A DNA stretch of 64,000 nucleotides, taken from NCBI GenBank assembly GCA_038150265.1, contig JAYOTF010000001.1:98092-162091 (forward strand), written 5' to 3'. The notes beneath the pieces are model-generated. The model was not told where the DNA came from, did not search any database, and was given only the letters and a program-made list of their open reading frames with translations. The stretch comes from Deltaproteobacteria bacterium (GTDB lineage: Bacteria; SAR324; NAC60-12). Positions 24,874 through 50,775 of this stretch are shown piece by piece. A program made the translations under genes and the position numbers. Position 1 is the first letter of the stretch, and every line of letters starts with the position of its first letter.

Positions 24874-25809
24874 ATGAGTTTTCATCACTGGCTGGACTGC
24901 TCCGAAGAGGTCCAGGCCGCCCAAGCGTCCGGAACCCCTGTGGTTGCCCTGGAATCCACCATCATCTCGCACGGCATGCCCTACCCTCAGAACCTGGAGA
25001 CGGCTCACTCGGTGGAAGCCATCATCCGAGAAGAAGGCGCGGTGCCCGCCACCATCGCAGTGATTGATGGGCGCCTGAAGGTGGGGCTCTCGGAAGAGGA
25101 GCTGGAACAGTTTGCCCAGAATCCGAACATTGCCAAGGCCAGCCGCCGCGACCTTCCGGTTCTGTTGGCTCAGAAGCGGAGTGGCGGCACCACGGTCGCA
25201 GCCACGATGATCTGCGCCCACATGGCAGAGATCCCGGTGTTTGTGACGGGGGGCATTGGAGGCGTGCACCGCGAGATCGAGAAAACCCTCGACATCTCCG
25301 CCGACCTGGCTGAGCTCGCTCACACCAACGTTGCGGTGGTCTGTGCAGGCATCAAGTCCATCCTCGACATTCCGAAGACGCTGGAGTTTTTGGAGACCCA
25401 AGGGGTTCCCGTGATTGGCTTCCGGACCCAGGAGTTCCCGTCCTTCTACACCCCTTCCAGCGGGTGCCGCTCTCAGGTCCGCATGGACTCCGCCAGCGAA
25501 ATTGCCAACTGCATGAACATCAAGTGGGAGCTGGGCCTGAAGGGCGGACTGGTCATTGGAAACCCGGTTCCGCCGGAAGATGCCATGGACGAAAACCAGG
25601 TGCAGCAGGCCATTCTGGAGTCGCTTCAGGAAGCCCGGAGCCAGCAAATCGGAGGCAAGGAAGTCACGCCCTTCCTGCTGGAACGCGTCAACCAGCGCAC
25701 TCAGGGCAGAAGCCTGGCCAGCAACATTGCCCTCATCCGCAACAACGCACGTCTTGGGGCTCGCATCGCGGTCGCCTACCAGCAGCTCAAGGAAGCAACG
25801 CCTGCATGA
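24874..25809 (+). CDS. psuG: Pseudouridine-5'-phosphate glycosidase
   Basis: [21 protein letters not shown] and overall IndA/PsuG family similarity. Confidence 0.85.
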
Positions 25810-35293: not shown

Positions 35294-35614
35294 TTACAAA
35301 GAGGAGGAATTTTTGTAGAACGGAGTGGGCTTGAGGAAGAGGCGGGAGCGCTTGGGCTGAACCCGTTCCTGCAGAAAATCGATGCCGCTCAGCAGTTCAG
35401 AGGAGGCAGGGGTGGACCGGGAAGCAGACGAGGGGGGTGGTGACGTGGGCTGGTGCATGCGCTGCTCCAGCGCATCGATGACCCGCATCATTTCCCGACG
35501 CTCCTGTTGGTCCTGAGACCGTTGTTGAATGAGTTGCTCGCTCATGGAAACCAGGCGTTCACTCATGTCAATCAGGCGATCGTAGCGTTCTTCGAAAGTC
35601 TTTCGGGTACTCAT
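35294..35614 (-). CDS. Hypothetical coiled-coil protein with Pro/Ser-rich tail
   Basis: ORF only. Heptad-like ERYDRLIDMSERLVSMSEQLIQQRSQDQQERREMMRVIDALEQRM. No recognisable motif. Confidence 0.4.
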   Translation of the reverse strand: MSTRKTFEERYDRLIDMSERLVSMSEQLIQQRSQDQQERREMMRVIDALEQRMHQPTSPPPSSASRSTPASSELLSGIDFLQERVQPKRSRLFLKPTPFYKNSSSL

Positions 35615-36782: not shown

Positions 36783-36989
36783 ATGAACGCCACCATTCTC
36801 AATGATGCCATCCGCCTCCTCAGTCATGAAATGACAAAACGAGGACACAAGCCGTTTGACAACGACCTCATCACCGCTCAACTGGAACGAGTGGAGACGC
36901 ATCTGAGCAAGGATCACCGCAATGAGCTGATCACCATGTTTCACCTGGATACCCCCAACGTGGACGGAGCCTGCTGGGAGCGGATCTAA
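36783..36989 (+). CDS. Hypothetical 68-aa protein
   Basis: MNATILNDAIRLLSHEMTKRGHKPFDNDLITAQLERVETHLSKDHRNELITMFHLDTPNVDGACWERI. ORF only, in the low-GC island. Confidence 0.3.
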   Translation: MNATILNDAIRLLSHEMTKRGHKPFDNDLITAQLERVETHLSKDHRNELITMFHLDTPNVDGACWERI

Positions 36990-37237
36990 TCCTTCTGGGT
37001 CAGCCCCATGAAGCGGTCTTCAAGCGAGTTGACCTCGACAATCCGGGCCGCTAGCAGGCCATTTTCCTTGGTGACGGCCTCAGCGGTGGCAATGGGCCGC
37101 TCGTTGACCAGCAGTTCCAGCTGCGACTGATTCGGCGCTTCCAGCTGAATCACGGACCCCTGTCCAAGGTTCAGGATGCTGCCGATTTCCATGTCGCACC
37201 GCCCAAGCACAAGCCGAACCGTTAGGGGCATGTCCAT
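36986..37237 (-). CDS. Orphan FliN/FliY/YscQ-type SpoA-domain protein (84 aa)
   Basis: DMPLTVRLVLGRCDMEIGSILNLGQGSVIQLEAPNQSQLELLVNERPIATAEAVTKENGLLAARIVEV aligns with the FliN C-terminus IPVKLTVELGRTRMTIKELLRLTQGSVVALDGLAGEPLDILINGYLIAQGEVVVVADKYGVRITDI. The start is set at MDM, because the upstream in-frame extension is low-complexity. Confidence 0.6.
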   Translation of the reverse strand: MDMPLTVRLVLGRCDMEIGSILNLGQGSVIQLEAPNQSQLELLVNERPIATAEAVTKENGLLAARIVEVNSLEDRFMGLTQKD

Positions 37238-37399
37238 CAATCGACCCAGCTTTCCACTGAGGCCGGGTCCTTGCTGTTGCTTCTGACTCACAATTCCCTG
37301 TAGAAAAAAGTAGCGAAGTCCAAAGAGATTTGGTACTCTTGGCTGTTTCTCACAAGCATAACGTTTGGTCTCCGAAGAACAAGCAGAAATAAAGGCGCC

Positions 37400-37546
37400 A
37401 TGTCCCCGAAGCAAAAAACCGAGCTGCAACGCAAAAAGAAAGATCGCCCGAACAAGGCCAACTGCAAGAAGCGCGAGCAGCAGAACCGAGCCAATCTCCT
37501 GATCATCCGGGAATTGACCTCGGATGCAAGCCAAGCCGATGCCTGA
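37400..37546 (+). CDS. Possible 48-aa highly basic small protein
   Basis: ATG at 37400 to TGA at 37546 encodes MSPKQKTELQRKKKDRPNKANCKKREQQNRANLLIIRELTSDASQADA. It is below the ORF-track size cut-off and overlaps the annotated 5' extension of xth. Confidence 0.2.
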   Translation: MSPKQKTELQRKKKDRPNKANCKKREQQNRANLLIIRELTSDASQADA

Positions 37547-38904: not shown

Positions 38905-39426
38905 ATGCGTACACTCGCAAAAGCCCTCACCGTTGTTTTTGGAAGCCTGCTGATCGCTTCCACGGCCTCCGCCGAGTTGTTCTCCGTTAGTGTTGGCATA
39001 CCCGTCAGCCACACGTTCAGCGATGATGCCGTTGAATCCGACGGCACCAGCGGTGTCTTCGCCGCAGTCAAGCTCCCGATCCTGGTGGGCCTGGGTGTGG
39101 AGAACTACAGCACCGACATCAAGGGCCAGGACACGAAGCTCAACACCACGATGTATGACGTCTTCTACCTGCTCCCGATTCCGATCATCAACTTCACCCT
39201 CGGCGTGGGCATGGGCACCACGGAGCTCGACTGTGCAACCTGTTCAGCCCAGTATGATACCGGAACCGCAACCCAGTGGTACGGAAGCCTCGGCTTTCCT
39301 TTCCTCGGAATTGCAGACCTGCACGTGAGTTACCGCTCCGTCAGCTCCAAGATCGAAGACAGCAGCGGCAACAAGACCGACGTCAGCGGCAACGTTACTG
39401 GCATTGGCGTCAGCGTCGGATTTTAA
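38905..39426 (+). CDS. Small outer-membrane beta-barrel protein (OmpW/OmpA-like class), paralog 1
   Basis: Signal peptide MRTLAKALTVVFGSLLIASTASA, alternating hydrophobic beta-strand pattern, C-terminal ...GIGVSVGF ending in Phe. Confidence 0.6.
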   Translation: MRTLAKALTVVFGSLLIASTASAELFSVSVGIPVSHTFSDDAVESDGTSGVFAAVKLPILVGLGVENYSTDIKGQDTKLNTTMYDVFYLLPIPIINFTLGVGMGTTELDCATCSAQYDTGTATQWYGSLGFPFLGIADLHVSYRSVSSKIEDSSGNKTDVSGNVTGIGVSVGF

Positions 39427-39432
39427 TCAGGT

Positions 39433-40053
39433 TTGGTCATGAAACAGCTCAAGAAACTGGTACTGATCAGCATGGGCTTGCTGATTGGTGCGGGAGTCAC
39501 GCAGGCTCAGTTCATTGGCATCAGCGTTGATGGAGCCATCGGCTACACGGCCACGGAGAGCACGGTTTCCGGAGGCAGTGTTGACCTTTCTCATCCGGTC
39601 CCCTTCGTCCCAAACTTCGGTTACAGTGCCTTGAGCTTCATTGACGAAGCCGATCTGCTTCCCAGCACCGGATCCGAATCGTTGAACACGAAGACGACCC
39701 TGGCGCTGCAGAGCTACCACCTCTTCTACCATGTTCCCTTTCCGGTCGTCTCCATGGCCCTCGGCTTTGGGTTGGGCAGCGCTACCGTCAAAAGTGAACT
39801 GGCCATGACCAACAGTGGCAGCACGATCAGCAGTGAGGCGACCCAGGTGGTTCCAATCAGTGAAGCCTTCATTCACATCGGCTTGCCCGTCTGGAGCATT
39901 CTGGAGTTTCACATCGGCTACCACGCTTATTCGCTCTCCAAAGTCGATTTGACGAAAAATGCGGACTTCAATCCAGCGGACTACAACTTTAGCGTTGAAG
40001 AGAAGAACTACACGGGGGGCATGACCACCGTGGGGTTGCAAATCGCGTTTTGA
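39433..40053 (+). CDS. Small outer-membrane beta-barrel protein, paralog 2
   Basis: Signal peptide MKQLKKLVLISMGLLIGAGVTQA, C-terminus ...TVGLQIAF. Shares the beta-barrel pattern and the short LGxG motifs (LGVG / LGFGLG) of the upstream paralog. Confidence 0.6.
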   Translation: MVMKQLKKLVLISMGLLIGAGVTQAQFIGISVDGAIGYTATESTVSGGSVDLSHPVPFVPNFGYSALSFIDEADLLPSTGSESLNTKTTLALQSYHLFYHVPFPVVSMALGFGLGSATVKSELAMTNSGSTISSEATQVVPISEAFIHIGLPVWSILEFHIGYHAYSLSKVDLTKNADFNPADYNFSVEEKNYTGGMTTVGLQIAF

Positions 40054-40704
40054 GTGTTCCCCTCCCCCTTTCCGGCAACGGTTGGATTTCACACCCAGCC
40101 GTGCCACGCCCCCAGCGACTGCTTTCCTGAAGAAATCGAATCGGTCTCACACTTCCGATCCGCAAGCCGGCGTCAGGAGTTCTTCGCAGGACGTACCTGT
40201 GCGCATCGAGCATTGGAGCAACTGGGCCTCACGCCCGTCCCTCTTCTTCATGATCCCGAAACCCGCATCCCGGCCTGGCCTCCGGAGACCAGAGGCAGCC
40301 TCACCCACTCCGGAGGCGTAGCGGCAGCAGCGGTGGCCTGGTCCCGAGACGCCTTTGGAATCGGAATCGACCTCGAGCACCTTCCCCGAAAGATCAACCC
40401 TGGCATCACCCGACACGTGTGTACGCCTCGGGAACTCGCAACGTGGCAAGGGCTTCCCGCCAGCGAGCAGGATGCTTTTCTCAAGCGTTTGTTCTCGGCA
40501 AAGGAAACCATCTACAAGAGCCTCTTTCCCCAGCTGCGGGTGCCCATTGGCTTTCAAGACGCCGACCTTGAGTTTGCCCCGAGCACCTTTTGCTTCACGC
40601 TCACCCGCTCCCTTGACCCCGGATTCCCTGCAGGATTCACGGCCACTGGTCACTGGCAGCAAACTCCGGAATTCGTCCTCACGTCGCTTCTGATTCCCCA
40701 GTAA
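40054..40704 (+). CDS. 4'-phosphopantetheinyl transferase (Sfp/EntD-type)
   Basis: RRQEFFAGRTCAHRALEQLGL, GIGIDLEHL and FSAKETIYKSLFP are the three PPTase motifs. GTG start directly after the upstream stop. Confidence 0.75.
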   Translation: MFPSPFPATVGFHTQPCHAPSDCFPEEIESVSHFRSASRRQEFFAGRTCAHRALEQLGLTPVPLLHDPETRIPAWPPETRGSLTHSGGVAAAAVAWSRDAFGIGIDLEHLPRKINPGITRHVCTPRELATWQGLPASEQDAFLKRLFSAKETIYKSLFPQLRVPIGFQDADLEFAPSTFCFTLTRSLDPGFPAGFTATGHWQQTPEFVLTSLLIPQ

Positions 40705-40950
40705 CTTCAGCTAATTAGCCTGGTTTTGAACAGGGTTTGAACCAACCTTCAACAGCTATCAACAATTTATCGACACCCTTTGGGAGAGTATTGGGTTTTT
40801 CCCGATGATTTGGTATCTTGATGGGTCTCAATTGTTGATATCAACATCCCTTCAAAAATCAGGATTCCCCAAAAATCGTTTGAGTTCAGATTGTTGAAGA
40901 GTTTTCGACAGAATCGACAGCCTCTACTGACACTAACCTAACAAGGACTA
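40705..40950. promoter_or_regulatory. Candidate chromosomal replication origin (oriC): AT-rich intergenic region with clustered DnaA-box-like motifs
   Basis: About 40% GC against ~60% flanking. It contains TTCAACAGC (40748), TATCAACAA (40757), TTATCGACA (40767), the palindrome TGTTGATATCAACA (40833-40846), TTGTTGAAG (40891, reverse box), TTTTCGACA (40902) and AATCGACAG (40912). It sits immediately upstream of dnaN-recF-gyrB. Confidence 0.5.
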
Positions 40951-42066
40951 ATGGAAATCTTAATCAAACAGGAAGTACTGAAGGGGGCTCTTCAGAACCT
41001 GATCTCGGTGATTGATAAAAGCTCCGCGAAACCGATCCTGTCGAATTTCCTCATGCAAGCGCTTCCGGAACAGGGAATGGTGGAGTTCCAGGCAACGGAT
41101 CATGAGCTGTCCTTGATTGAACGCTTCCCGGCTCAGGTGAAGTCGGGAGGAAGCATGTGTGTCAATGCCCGGAAGATGTACGACATCAGCCGGGAGTTCC
41201 AGGAAGACGAGGTCAAGATTCAGTCGACCGAGCAGCTCTGGATTCACGTCAGTTGCGGCAAGTCCCAGCTTCGTCTGCCTTCAGTAGATGTCGGGCTCTA
41301 TCCCCAGACTTCCATGTAAGACATTTCGGGCAAGGTGACGGTCACGGTGTAAGCCATCAAGCGAGCAATTGACATGACGCTGTTTGCCGCTCAGACCAAC
41401 GAGTCCCGCCGCAACCTGATGGGCGTGAACCTCTCTTCCAAGGAAGGTTCCACCCGCTGGCTGGCAACGGACGGCCATCGGCTCGCTCAGATGCTGCTGC
41501 CAGTGGAGTCGCTGACCATGGGAGACGTTGAGGATGTGATCATTCCCCGGAAGGCCCTGAACGAGGTCCGGCGCTCGGCAGACCTTTTTGGGGAGCAGGT
41601 CCAGGTTTCGTTTGATGAGCGCGTGATGCAGTTTTCAGGGGAGTCGATTGTTTACAAGGCGAGCCTCATTGTAGGGAACTTACCGAAGTGCGACCCGATA
41701 ATTGCGAAAGACAAACCTCTGGTGGCCAACGTGGACCGCGAGCGCCTGATGAACTCCCTCCGCATTGTCTCATCCATCAGCGCTGAGAAGCTCAAGCCCG
41801 TCAAGATCACACTGGGGCCAAACCGGATGCTGCTGGAGAGCGAAAAGACGGACTATGGCGAGGTGAGTGACGAACTGGAGGCCACGTATGAAGGCGAGGA
41901 CTTCCAGATTGGTTTCAACTCCCGCTACCTGCTGGATGTGCTGAGCGTGATGGAAGCCGAGAAGGTCCAGATGGAGTTCAAGAATCCAATGAGCCCCACG
42001 GTGCTGCGGGAGTCCGGAAAGAACGAGTTTCTCTCCGTGATCATGCCGTTGCGAATTGAATGGTAA
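40951..42066 (+). pseudogene. dnaN: DNA polymerase III beta sliding clamp (dnaN) interrupted by two in-frame TAA codons at 41317-41319 and 41350-41352
   Basis: Both ORF-track pieces (40951-41319 and 41374-42066) are in the same frame and align colinearly with the beta clamp (LPSVDVGLYPQ...ATDGHRLAQ). Each TAA sits where E. coli has Gln (DDWQSEV and LPQATMKRLIE). Whether this is a true pseudogene, a sequencing error or recoding is unresolved. Confidence 0.85.
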
Positions 42067-43124
42067 TTCGGGAACTGGAACTTTCCTGCTTCCGGAACTA
42101 CCAGCAGCAGCAGATTCAGTTCAGTCCAGGGGTAAACTGGATCTCTGGGCGACACGGTCAGGGCAAGACCAACTTGGTGGAGGCCGTCCATTACCTCTGC
42201 AACCTGGAGTCCTTCCGGACCCGGAAGCTCACCCAGCTCATTCTGAGTAACAGCTCACTGGCTGCCCTGTCGGCTCAGATTGAGAGCCGGGAGGTGCTGC
42301 GTCACTGCCGCATTGCCATCACGTCCAAGGGGCGTCAGGTGTTTTTGGATCGGCAACCCCTCCAGCGGGTTTCCGAGTACGTGCTGGCCTTCATGGCGCT
42401 GATCTTCACTCCGGAAGACGTCAACCTGTTCCGGAGCCTGCCTGGAGAACGCCGGAGGTTCTTCAACCGCATCCTTTCGTTTCTCGATCCTGTTCACCTG
42501 GAGGCCCTGCAGCAGTACGCTCAGGCCCTGGCGCAGAAGAATGCCCTGCTCAAGCAGCATCAGCCAGCCGACCTTTCGATCTGGAATGAGCTGCTCGCGC
42601 GCTATGGAACGGTGCTGACGCACAAGCGCCGCGCCTTTGTGGAGGTGCTGAATCCGTTGCTGAGTGATGCCTTCCGGAGCATGTCGAACCGACCCGAAAC
42701 CCTGCTGCTGGAGTACCTGCCCAGCTTTTCTGAAGACGAAAATCAGGCCCAAAAGCAACTTGAAGAAGGACTCCCGCGAGAGCGGCACTATGGACACGCG
42801 TTGCTGGGACCCCACCGGGATGATTTTCGATTAAGCCTTGATGGAAAACCGGATCGCGAATTCTTTTCCCAGGGGGAGTTTCGCCTCACAAATTTGTCTT
42901 TGAAGATTGCCATAAATGCGGTATTATCAGAAAGATATGGTTATCAGCCAGCCTTGATTCTGGACGATCTCTTTTCTGAGTTGGATCCTTTGATCTGTCA
43001 AGGGGTGCTCGCTCATTTGGGACAGTTGAACAATCAGGTCTTCATCACTTCCACGAGTCATCCTTCATCACAGTCCTTCCCGATTCAGACCTTTCGTATC
43101 GAGCACGGCTTTTTGCAATCCTGA
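42060..43124 (+). CDS. recF: DNA replication and repair protein RecF
   Basis: MVIRELELSCFRNYQQQQIQFSPGVNWISGRHGQGKTNLVEAV (Walker A), plus the C-terminal signature and D-loop (LILDDLFSELD). Confidence 0.9.
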   Translation: MVIRELELSCFRNYQQQQIQFSPGVNWISGRHGQGKTNLVEAVHYLCNLESFRTRKLTQLILSNSSLAALSAQIESREVLRHCRIAITSKGRQVFLDRQPLQRVSEYVLAFMALIFTPEDVNLFRSLPGERRRFFNRILSFLDPVHLEALQQYAQALAQKNALLKQHQPADLSIWNELLARYGTVLTHKRRAFVEVLNPLLSDAFRSMSNRPETLLLEYLPSFSEDENQAQKQLEEGLPRERHYGHALLGPHRDDFRLSLDGKPDREFFSQGEFRLTNLSLKIAINAVLSERYGYQPALILDDLFSELDPLICQGVLAHLGQLNNQVFITSTSHPSSQSFPIQTFRIEHGFLQS

Positions 43125-43155
43125 GGAGTCAGGAAAGCCGCTTCGGCAACCCTAG

Positions 43156-45587
<2,432 letters not shown>

Positions 45588-46943: not shown

Positions 46944-48107
46944 ATGACGCACTTTCTCTGGAAAGGATCCGATTTCTCTGGAAGGGACCTGGAAGGGGCA
47001 GAAGAAAGTGCATCAGCGTTCACCCTCCGAAACGCCCTTCACGCCCAAGGGGTGTACCGCATTCAGCTGGTCCCCCTTCATGCCTTTTCCTGGAAACAGC
47101 CCCTCTCCGAAGCACAGATTGTGGACTGGCTGGAGCAGCTTCAGCAGTTGCTCCAGGCTCACCTGCGCTTGGCCGAAGCGATCAGTCTGATTGCAGAAAC
47201 GAGTCGGAAGTTGCCGCTGCGGTACCGCTGGCGTCGGGTGCATCAGGCGCTGCACGCGGGGCGGTCCTTCAGCCAGGCTCTTGAGCAATTTGGCGGCATG
47301 CCGGGGTGGGTGACCCAGCTCATCCGGGTGGCTGAGGCAACCGATCGGCTTCCGGAAGTCCTGCGAGGGCTGGTGGAGTTTTATCAGTTCAAGCGAGAGG
47401 TTGCGCAGGAGCGTCAGAAGGTCGCAAGCTACCCACTGCTGGTGCTGACCAGCTTCCTCTTCATCACTCTGGGGATTCTCCTCTTCATCATTCCGATGTT
47501 TCACCGAGTCTATCAGCGTTTTGGCGAAGACTTGTTTTGGGGCACCGCCGTGCTGCAAGCCCTCAGTGAGGGGCTCCGGAATCATCCTGGAGTTGCCTTC
47601 GGAATCCTGGGTGCGCTGGGAGGAGCCGGAATCTGGTACCACCGTCAGGGAGAGGGCTTCTGGAAGCTCCTTCCCGGGGGAGCGACCATTGTCCGAGAGA
47701 GCCAGCTGATGTTTTACAGCACCGCGATGAACCTGCTGCTGCGCTCTCGGCTGAACCTGCAGGAAGCCCTTCCTCTGGCATCTGAGTTGCTGTTGGGGCG
47801 TCAGCAGCACTCTCTGGAGAGGGTCCGGGAAGAACTGCTCTCCGGAATTGCCCCAGCAGATGCCTTCCGTCACGCTTCCTGGGCGTCGGCTTCCTTTCTG
47901 AGGATGGTGGCACTTGCTGATGAGAGCGGAAACCTTGCAGAAGGCTTCCGGCAGCATAGCCTCTCCCTCAAGGACCACCTGAAGGTGCGTCTGAACTGGA
48001 TGAACGCCTTGTTGGGTCCCTTGCTGATGCTGCTGGTTGCGCTTGGGGTGCTGTTTGTGTTGCTTTCGGTGTACCTGCCTCTGTTCCGGGTGGTGGACTA
48101 CTACTAA
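46944..48107 (+). CDS. Type II secretion / type IV pilus platform protein (GspF/PilC family)
   Basis: Two T2SSF-type repeats with the three-TM topology typical of GspF/PilC. No cognate ATPase or pilin gene is adjacent. Confidence 0.7.
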   Translation: MTHFLWKGSDFSGRDLEGAEESASAFTLRNALHAQGVYRIQLVPLHAFSWKQPLSEAQIVDWLEQLQQLLQAHLRLAEAISLIAETSRKLPLRYRWRRVHQALHAGRSFSQALEQFGGMPGWVTQLIRVAEATDRLPEVLRGLVEFYQFKREVAQERQKVASYPLLVLTSFLFITLGILLFIIPMFHRVYQRFGEDLFWGTAVLQALSEGLRNHPGVAFGILGALGGAGIWYHRQGEGFWKLLPGGATIVRESQLMFYSTAMNLLLRSRLNLQEALPLASELLLGRQQHSLERVREELLSGIAPADAFRHASWASASFLRMVALADESGNLAEGFRQHSLSLKDHLKVRLNWMNALLGPLLMLLVALGVLFVLLSVYLPLFRVVDYY

Positions 48108-49269: not shown

Positions 49270-50775
49270 TTGCTCTGTCGAGACACACTTTCAAAAGCAT
49301 TCCTTACCCTTACGCTGATCCTCTCCATATCGCCAGCTTTGAGTTACGCCCAAACGAACTTCATCCCACTGGAGCGAGGAGACGTTCGGGAGCGAGAGGA
49401 GCGCCTCATGTTCACGCCCGGAGTTCAGCTTTCCGGGGACTTCCGCTTCCGGACCAGCCTGTTGAGTGGGTCAGAGCTGCCGACTTCCCGTCCGGGAACC
49501 AACTCTCCGGAAGAGTTCGCGTTTGACCAGGACATCCGCCTGAAGATGCAGACCATTGTGCATCCGATGACCACGATGGTTCTGGAACTGGCCACCGCTC
49601 AGGAGCCTTACTTTCAATCGGATCTGCGGGACTCCAGCGCCAACCAGGTAGGTGAGCCCGACTCACAAACCATTGCCTTGACGGCCCGCCAGTCGTACCT
49701 GGACCTGAACTTCAACCCCCGCAACACCCTGAGGATCGGGAAGCAGGAGGTCAACGTGGGGGACCGGCGGGGGAAGGTCTTCAATGGCGTCCTCACCGGA
49801 TTTGCGCAGCCGAAGTGCCGGACGGGCACCTGGTGTTACGAGTTCGGCGGTTACAAGCTTTCCAGCGCTGATTCCGATTGGCTCTACAGCCTTTCCCTGG
49901 ATTACCCTTTTGTGTATGAAGTGGATGCGAGCCAGAACCCGCTGAATGTGATCCGGGCCGAGCTGTTCCGCATCAAGTACACGGAGCATGACATTCCAGT
50001 GGGGACGCGCCTGCACCCCACCGTGAGGCCAACAGACAACAGCACCGATACCCTGCTCACCAACAGCTCTGGAGAGGCGCTCTATTACAATGCTCATGAG
50101 CAGGAGTACTACGGAATCCGCTTCCTCTGGGACACCTCAAGCTTCCGCATCTACTTTGATGCCACCTCGAACATCGGGAACCGGCGGTACTTCACTCAGT
50201 CAGATCGCAACACGCAGGAGCCGTACAAGGTCCGGGGCGTGGCCACGGAGTGGGAGCTGACCTACAAGACCGGGAACGGTGAGCTGAGCCTGCTCTACAT
50301 GGGCGCGCAGGGAGATGAGGAGCTGGACAACCAAACCGCCAACTACCAGAGGGAGCTTCAGGGGTACTACGAAATTGTTCCCGGAACCTACCAGGGCACC
50401 CAGTTTTACTTCAATGGCGGCAGCACTGCCCTCAACAGTGGAACCGGACTGGGGCACTCCATCAACAACACCCAGTTGCTGGGGCTCCGCTACCTCTACC
50501 GAGTTCCGGAAAGTGATTTGGTGTACCGCTTTGGCCTCTACCAGCTCAAGCACATGCAGCCGGTTCTCAGCGCCGAAGGAAACCCCGTCAAGGAAATTGG
50601 GGTAGAATGGGACAACACCTTCTCCTTCCCCCTCGCGAAGCACGTTCAGGCTGACCTCGACCTCAATGTCTTCCAACTGGCTCCGGCCTTTCGGTATGAC
50701 GAAACCAGTGCGCCTCTCGGAAAGAACGGCGAGCTGTTGACCCATGTGGCCGGACGCCTGATCTACTCCTTCTGA
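49270..50775 (+). CDS. Hypothetical outer-membrane protein (large beta-barrel/porin-like)
   Basis: Signal peptide ...LTLTLILSISPALSYAQ, beta-strand-rich sequence, and the C-terminal ...GRLIYSF aromatic terminus typical of OMPs. Confidence 0.5.
   Translation: MLCRDTLSKAFLTLTLILSISPALSYAQTNFIPLERGDVREREERLMFTPGVQLSGDFRFRTSLLSGSELPTSRPGTNSPEEFAFDQDIRLKMQTIVHPMTTMVLELATAQEPYFQSDLRDSSANQVGEPDSQTIALTARQSYLDLNFNPRNTLRIGKQEVNVGDRRGKVFNGVLTGFAQPKCRTGTWCYEFGGYKLSSADSDWLYSLSLDYPFVYEVDASQNPLNVIRAELFRIKYTEHDIPVGTRLHPTVRPTDNSTDTLLTNSSGEALYYNAHEQEYYGIRFLWDTSSFRIYFDATSNIGNRRYFTQSDRNTQEPYKVRGVATEWELTYKTGNGELSLLYMGAQGDEELDNQTANYQRELQGYYEIVPGTYQGTQFYFNGGSTALNSGTGLGHSINNTQLLGLRYLYRVPESDLVYRFGLYQLKHMQPVLSAEGNPVKEIGVEWDNTFSFPLAKHVQADLDLNVFQLAPAFRYDETSAPLGKNGELLTHVAGRLIYSF

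Follow-up and report, generated by a model that had tools for sequence, protein, structure and literature searches.

The beta sliding clamp (DnaN) is known from solved structures (PDB 5wce and 6izo; 1mmi and 2pol for Escherichia coli). The gene described here shares with the canonical clamp its three domains, its length of 371 residues and the gene order dnaN-recF-gyrB. It differs from canonical DnaN in having two in-frame TAA codons, and seven replacements in and around an otherwise invariant segment, RLIEGKFPNCDPIIPKDN. Second clamp genes have been reported in some Bacillus and Streptomyces. With redundant paralogues of that kind, a second gene would let one copy carry nonsense mutations. 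No such paralogue is seen here in the window or in the relatives, and the substitutions are patchy rather than gene-wide.

In-frame stops in an intact, conserved frame are also found where stop codons are reassigned (bacterial codes 4 and 25 for TGA; TAG- and TGA-recoded phages) and where read-through is programmed. The stop reassignments known in bacteria involve TGA or TAG, and not TAA. In contrast to these systems, TAA terminates genes in the same window here, and the stops are unique to one gene and one assembly. A search of the literature on stop-codon use in SAR324 and on dnaN pseudogenes found nothing relevant. Contig-end and low-coverage errors in short-read metagenome assemblies likewise produce short transversion-rich patches, radical replacements and premature stops, as in one of the contigs described below (L009). 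The patches reported here, however, lie inside a 213.7-kb contig, where such errors would require merging, scaffolding or a low-depth consensus.

The dnaN reading frame and its two stop codons

The window, that is, the whole 64-kb stretch of DNA that was analysed, contains a beta clamp frame of 371 codons in which two TAA codons are the sole interruptions (Table 1). Translation confirmed the first-pass annotation of this frame, which had placed the two stops 33 nt apart. The Pfam clamp domains PF00712, PF02767 and PF02768 occur in order at residues 1-119, 132-246 and 252-368, all above the gathering score. Matches of the product to clamps in the PDB extend down to E = 4e-51. The gene array at the locus is dnaN-recF-gyrB-der. 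The single uninterrupted polypeptide of about 370 residues that is expected of DnaN is not encoded, with TAA at codons 123 and 134, whereas the frame is uninterrupted in 40/40 relatives.

Table 1. Features of the dnaN-recF region; positions are those of the window.
Feature	Position	Strand	Basis
dnaN (beta sliding clamp) frame, 371 codons and terminal TAA	40951..42066	+	Translation, Pfam, PDB matches, identity to L001
N-terminal fragment of 122 aa (domain I), a gene call of the deposited contig	40951..41319	+	Exact match to P0128, from one NCBI contig of 213,713 bp
In-frame TAA, codon 123, domain I/II linker; Glu in relatives	41317..41319	+	GAA/GAG in 40/40 relatives; L001 GAA
In-frame TAA, codon 134, start of domain II; Asp/Glu/Asn/Leu/Gln in relatives	41350..41352	+	L001 GAG, L002 AAC
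ORF of 230 aa from Met142, covering most of domains II-III, a gene call of the deposited contig	41374..42066	+	P0049 100% identical, same NCBI contig
Second anomaly, codons 238-256: R238S, E241V, K243N, F244L, N246K, P252A, N255K (invariant in 40 relatives) and A256P	41662..41718	+	Alignment, permutation
recF, start overlapping the dnaN stop (ATGGTAA), otherwise intact and conserved	42060..43124	+	ORF, Pfam, dN/dS against L001
recF codon 32, CAC (His) in Walker A GxNGxGKT; AAC (Asn) in all relatives and in L008 and L009	42153..42155	+	Alignment

Both fragments of the clamp, of 122 and 230 residues, are recorded from one NCBI contig; the deposited sequence therefore contains the stops, which are not peculiar to the window. 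An exact look-up of the two fragments, of recF and of P0049 in the contig index gave no match; they are present in the protein table. A tblastn search of the 64-kb window found no second dnaN, in agreement with the first reading of the locus.

Related genes were collected in two ways. A scan of species-representative genomes gave seven related loci, all from SAR324-clade or 'Deltaproteobacteria' metagenome-assembled genomes. A scan of JGI metagenomes with a degenerate DNA pattern across the site, and then with protein, gave 37 further and more distant clamp loci, which were used for conservation. The resulting conservation set comprises 40 related SAR324-clade clamp genes. The closest relative (L001, CBFIGY010000001) is collinear with the window over 30947-52123 at 82% nucleotide identity. 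Its clamp is intact, has 371 residues and is 92% identical in amino acids to the product of the window dnaN. The scan gave a single dnaN locus for each related genome. Some of the loci encountered are of poor quality. L007 (PBTB01000011, 10001-11126) is a SAR324-type locus full of ambiguous bases, and in L010 and L011, both assembled from long reads (one of them at 2.49x), dnaN, recF and gyrB are split into several ORFs.

All 40 related clamp genes are free of in-frame stops, at codons 123 and 134 as elsewhere. Codon 123 is Glu in all of them (GAA in 31, GAG in 9). Codon 134 is more variable, with Asp in 28, Glu in 7, Asn in 3, and Leu and Gln in 1 each. These residues do not fit the earlier proposal that each stop replaced a conserved Gln through a single C-to-T change (CAA to TAA). 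From L001 to the window, ATG GAA GAC has become ATG TAA GAC and GTG GAG AGC has become GTG TAA GCC. Since L001 has GAA and GAG at the two sites, the underlying change, as read from the codons, is likely to be a G-to-T transversion of a Glu codon. A residue-for-residue alignment with the E. coli clamp had also been claimed. The two strings quoted for it differ in length, at 22 and 21 letters, and in our alignment, with a manually entered E. coli sequence, W122 and A133, neither of them Gln, face the stops.

Both stops do lie in a TGTAAG hexamer, as noted at first, and this is part of a shared 10-mer, TGTAAG[A/C]CAT, with 9/10 positions identical. The same two sites in L001, TGGAAGACCT and TGGAGAGCCT, already match at 7/10 positions. 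Most of the shared context at the two stops is therefore inherited.

A systematic error at a GCAAG-like motif had been suggested as one origin of the stops. The ancestral codons were GAA/GAG, and the window contains 112 TGGAAG, 17 TGCAAG and 4 TGGAAGNCAT sites, all intact. The presumed ancestral contexts are likewise intact at 25013 (TGGAAGCCAT) and at 50666 on the minus strand (TGGAAGACAT), as is the context of dnaN codon 335, ATG GAA GCC. Because the same contexts are unaltered elsewhere in the window, we reject a motif-driven error.

Selection and clustered substitutions in dnaN and recF

Against L001, dN/dS is 0.029 for dnaN codons 1-122 and 0.033 for codons 135-371, with dS of 0.7-1.1. 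The values for gyrB, recF and der are similarly low, at 0.046, 0.067 and 0.021, respectively. From residue 263 to the C-terminus (371), the protein is identical to that of L001 despite normal synonymous divergence. A dN/dS of 0.03 on either side of the stops argues against any long-term decay of dnaN. The gene-wide relaxed selection and spread changes of a decaying pseudogene are not seen; the changes fall in two patches, and residues 263-371 are unchanged.

The second of these patches (codons 238-256) covers the end of domain II and the II/III linker, around a conserved LxEGxFP motif. Here RLIEGKFPNCDPIIPKDN has been replaced by SLIVGNLPKCDPIIAKDK. The window reads SLIVGNLPK where 40/40 relatives read RLIEGKFPN, and it no longer matches L-x-[DE]-G-x-[FY]-P, the segment conserved where domains II and III join. 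The segment corresponds to K235-P252 of E. coli, around the LxDGxFP motif, in the alignment with the E. coli clamp. This motif adjoins the partner-binding cleft. The codons TTA, ATA, GTA and AAA in this segment look unusual for a genome of 59% GC.

To quantify the anomaly, we took a 7-sequence alignment and counted private changes at columns that do not vary among the remaining six. For dnaN there are 9 in the window and 0 in L001. The same count for window and L001 gives 2 and 2 in gyrB, 1 and 0 in recF, and 0 and 0 in der (Fisher P = 4e-5). Across the 40 relatives, 150 columns of the clamp are invariant, and the window breaks eight of them (E123*, R238S, E241V, K243N, F244L, N246K, P252A and N255K). 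Seven of these eight changes lie within 18 codons, a degree of clustering that was reached in 0 of 200,000 permutations and that uniform pseudogene decay would not fit. The non-synonymous changes on the window branch of dnaN comprise 14 transversions and 2 transitions, against 154 and 111 in 13 neighbouring genes (P = 0.015).

Several origins of the changes were rejected. Import from a divergent functional clamp by recombination does not agree with the normal third-position divergence in the patch, nor with new residues that are found in no relative. Chimeric mixing of related strains is excluded because no relative has T at the position in codon 123, and the patch residues likewise occur in none. 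A small inversion or a pair of frameshifts is excluded as the cause of the second patch, where the codon register is preserved along with many of the residues. No donor sequence, repeat or DGR-like template for either patch was found in the window.

A further radical change lies in recF. Substitution of A by C at 42153 gives N32H in the Walker A motif, inside the same stretch of about 840 nt as the stops. Two short independent contigs of the same species, obtained in other projects, cover this position. L008, a Logan assembly of SRR26337548, is 99.6% identical in nucleotides over window 41870-43320, and L009, from ENA ERR2508276, is 98.4% identical over 41851-42456. The N32H substitution is the only radical change of the stretch that these contigs cover, and it is absent from both. 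Over its last 57 nt (550-606; window 42400-42456), L009 differs from both the window and L008 by four substitutions, and three of these are transversions. A G-to-T change among the four converts recF codon 129 from GGA to TGA, and the called protein stops at 128 aa. From its sequence, the end of L009 looks like a contig-end error cluster. Both contigs begin within 20 nt of each other (41851-41870), in the 3' part of dnaN. The region may be one that metagenome assembly handles poorly, although coincidence would also explain it.

No independent same-species contig that covers 41317-41718, and with it both TAA codons and the second patch, was found. Searches of the protein collection (queries 85-201 and 195-338) and of the JGI metagenomes found no same-species fragment over codons 85-338. 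The proteins P0137 and P0141 were considered as further split clamps and rejected; they come from frameshift-ridden long-read assemblies.

Taken together, the stretch 41311-42153 holds about 15 substitutions that have not been filtered by selection, mostly transversions, in two patches and one recF site. As a set, they occur in no other assembly available for comparison. The first-pass annotation missed the cluster of other impossible-looking substitutions in dnaN and the one in recF. The two TAA codons have a series of other implausible changes around them, and local sequence errors, or otherwise a very recent dead allele, are their most likely origin, rather than a new mode of decoding.

Origin of the stop codons

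TAA is a genuine terminator in this genome segment. A rough gene map has 61 ORF calls, of which 16 end in TAA, a figure that includes the internal stop at codon 123 and a few probable shadow ORFs; about 14 of roughly 60 rough gene calls, or about a quarter, are genuine TAA ends. The gene at 46944-48107 ends in ...LFRVVDYY both in the window, with TAA, and in its orthologue, with TGA. The gene at 35294-35614 has TAA where its orthologue has TAG, and reverse swaps also occur. The terminator of dnaN is itself TAA, after the conserved ...MPLRIEW. TAA therefore still ends genes in the window, which bears out the first-pass opinion that a genome-wide reading of TAA as Gln is unlikely.

Nor does the window contain the marks of a read-through site. 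The stops are not conserved in relatives. No tRNA gene was found in the window, no Rfam family reaches its threshold anywhere in it, and shuffled controls fold into more structure than the RNA around the stops (fold z = +1.73). Translational bypassing is ruled out by the 10 codons between the stops, which are still conserved clamp sequence. No frameshift and no other split gene was found in the 21 kb collinear with L001 or among the same-frame ORF pairs checked. The candidates (dprA and its neighbour, a NUDIX-like gene and kdsA, ribF and a LON-domain gene, and mazG) proved to be separate genes. Within the window, in-frame stops occur in dnaN only.

We consider it somewhat better than an even chance (about 55%) that the stops are a local consensus error private to this assembly, in one metagenome-assembled contig. 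The earlier proposal of a sequence error would then be right in a local form that is independent of any motif, and this is the best reading of the locus. The gene would be an ordinary single-copy SAR324-clade dnaN whose deposited sequence is locally corrupted, for example where read or contig ends full of errors were incorporated into a stretch with little support. Cells of the living population would make the usual clamp of 371 residues, with Glu at 123, and no codon would be recoded. We infer a common origin of the two TAA codons, the recF change and the clustered replacements, a technical rather than a biological cause for it, and the way in which the patches entered the long contig. The rest of the window counts against an error, as it is clean, with no broken gene in the 21 kb that it shares with L001; an error would thus have to be very local. 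A further point against an error is that singleton errors seldom survive in assemblies made from de Bruijn graphs. A real multi-site mutational event would also account for the transversion bias and the clustering.

Such an event could have struck a true dnaN that was inactivated very recently, with a second functional clamp elsewhere on the chromosome or on a mobile element and the copy at this locus gathering unselected mutations, multi-nucleotide events included. We hold this to be a possible but doubtful alternative to a local error. It agrees with the presence of the stops in the deposited sequence, with the otherwise good quality of the flanking 64 kb and with the share of nonsense changes (about 2 of some 18 non-synonymous ones), which is close to the unselected expectation; extra dnaN copies do occur in some bacteria. 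Yet the strong constraint on both halves of the gene and the unchanged C-terminal domain leave room only for a very recent loss of constraint, and of the first-pass suggestion of a pseudogene an old one is contradicted and a very recent inactivation might still be true. The confinement of the changes to two short patches is also not what decay would give, and recF, which should have stayed under selection, is altered in its Walker A motif within the same stretch. DnaN is essential, and in E. coli a single missense substitution can already be lethal (PMC4045847). A dead allele could therefore persist only with a backup copy, for which neither the window, without a second dnaN, nor the related genomes, with one dnaN locus each, speak.

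If the sequence were instead real and the clamp functional, both UAA codons would have to be decoded, by an ochre suppressor tRNA or by efficient read-through, to give a full-length protein. Frame and length are indeed kept codon for codon with L001 across and between the stops, and the 10 codons between them are still clamp-like. However, TAA terminates about a quarter of the rough gene calls at orthologous C-termini, where it is swapped with TGA and TAG between species, and it terminates dnaN as well. The window is without a tRNA, without RNA structure at the stops and without an Rfam family, and none of the 40 relatives has a stop at either position, which also tells against the programmed read-through raised in the first reading. 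The seven replacements at invariant positions argue that the allele is not under selection, and two successive UAA read-throughs would presumably leave a vanishing yield of an abundant essential protein. We regard such decoding as very unlikely. Slightly less probable still is its extended form, a living SAR324-clade population in which the UAA codons have become fixed and an ochre suppressor tRNA, or read-through that depends on context, yields a rapidly diverging full-length clamp, with UAA a terminator elsewhere. The least credible reading is a split clamp, with domain I (1-122) and domains II-III (Met142-371) made as two polypeptides that assemble into a ring. In its favour, the linker between domains I and II is where the first stop falls, there is an ATG downstream at 41374, and a shorter clamp form, started internally near Met135, has been reported for E. 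coli. Against this, residues 123-141, the first strand of domain II and the start of a helix, conserved in all relatives, would be lost; there is no Shine-Dalgarno-like sequence upstream of 41374; no relative is split; and the radical replacements at 238-256 would be left unexplained.

Stops that were real and decoded would make this a remarkable case, the first essential replication gene of a bacterium to be read through at UAA; the evidence speaks against it. The locus is a caution that a long, otherwise clean metagenome-assembled contig can hide a sub-kilobase corrupted stretch in a core gene. Comparison with the 40 relatives and with independent same-species contigs exposes such corruption. 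The deposited dnaN and recF are unfit as references, for instance in clamp alignments or in dnaN/recF/gyrB marker phylogenies.

Gene neighbourhood

The cumulative GC skew has its minimum at about 40000-44000, which suggests a replication origin near dnaN. DnaA boxes are not enriched in this region, with 7 matches against 5 expected. No dnaA precedes dnaN; a 4'-phosphopantetheinyl transferase gene is found there instead, at 40054-40704. Two adjacent ORFs in the same frame, at 38905-39426 and 39433-40053, encode 173 and 206 aa and end in ...GF or ...AF. They have no Pfam match, are conserved in L001 and L002, and could be paralogous small outer-membrane beta-barrel proteins. The replication gene cluster is flanked on one side by a protein with a FliN-type flagellar switch C-terminal domain (36986-37534, minus strand) and on the other by a type II secretion protein F homologue (46944-48107, plus strand).
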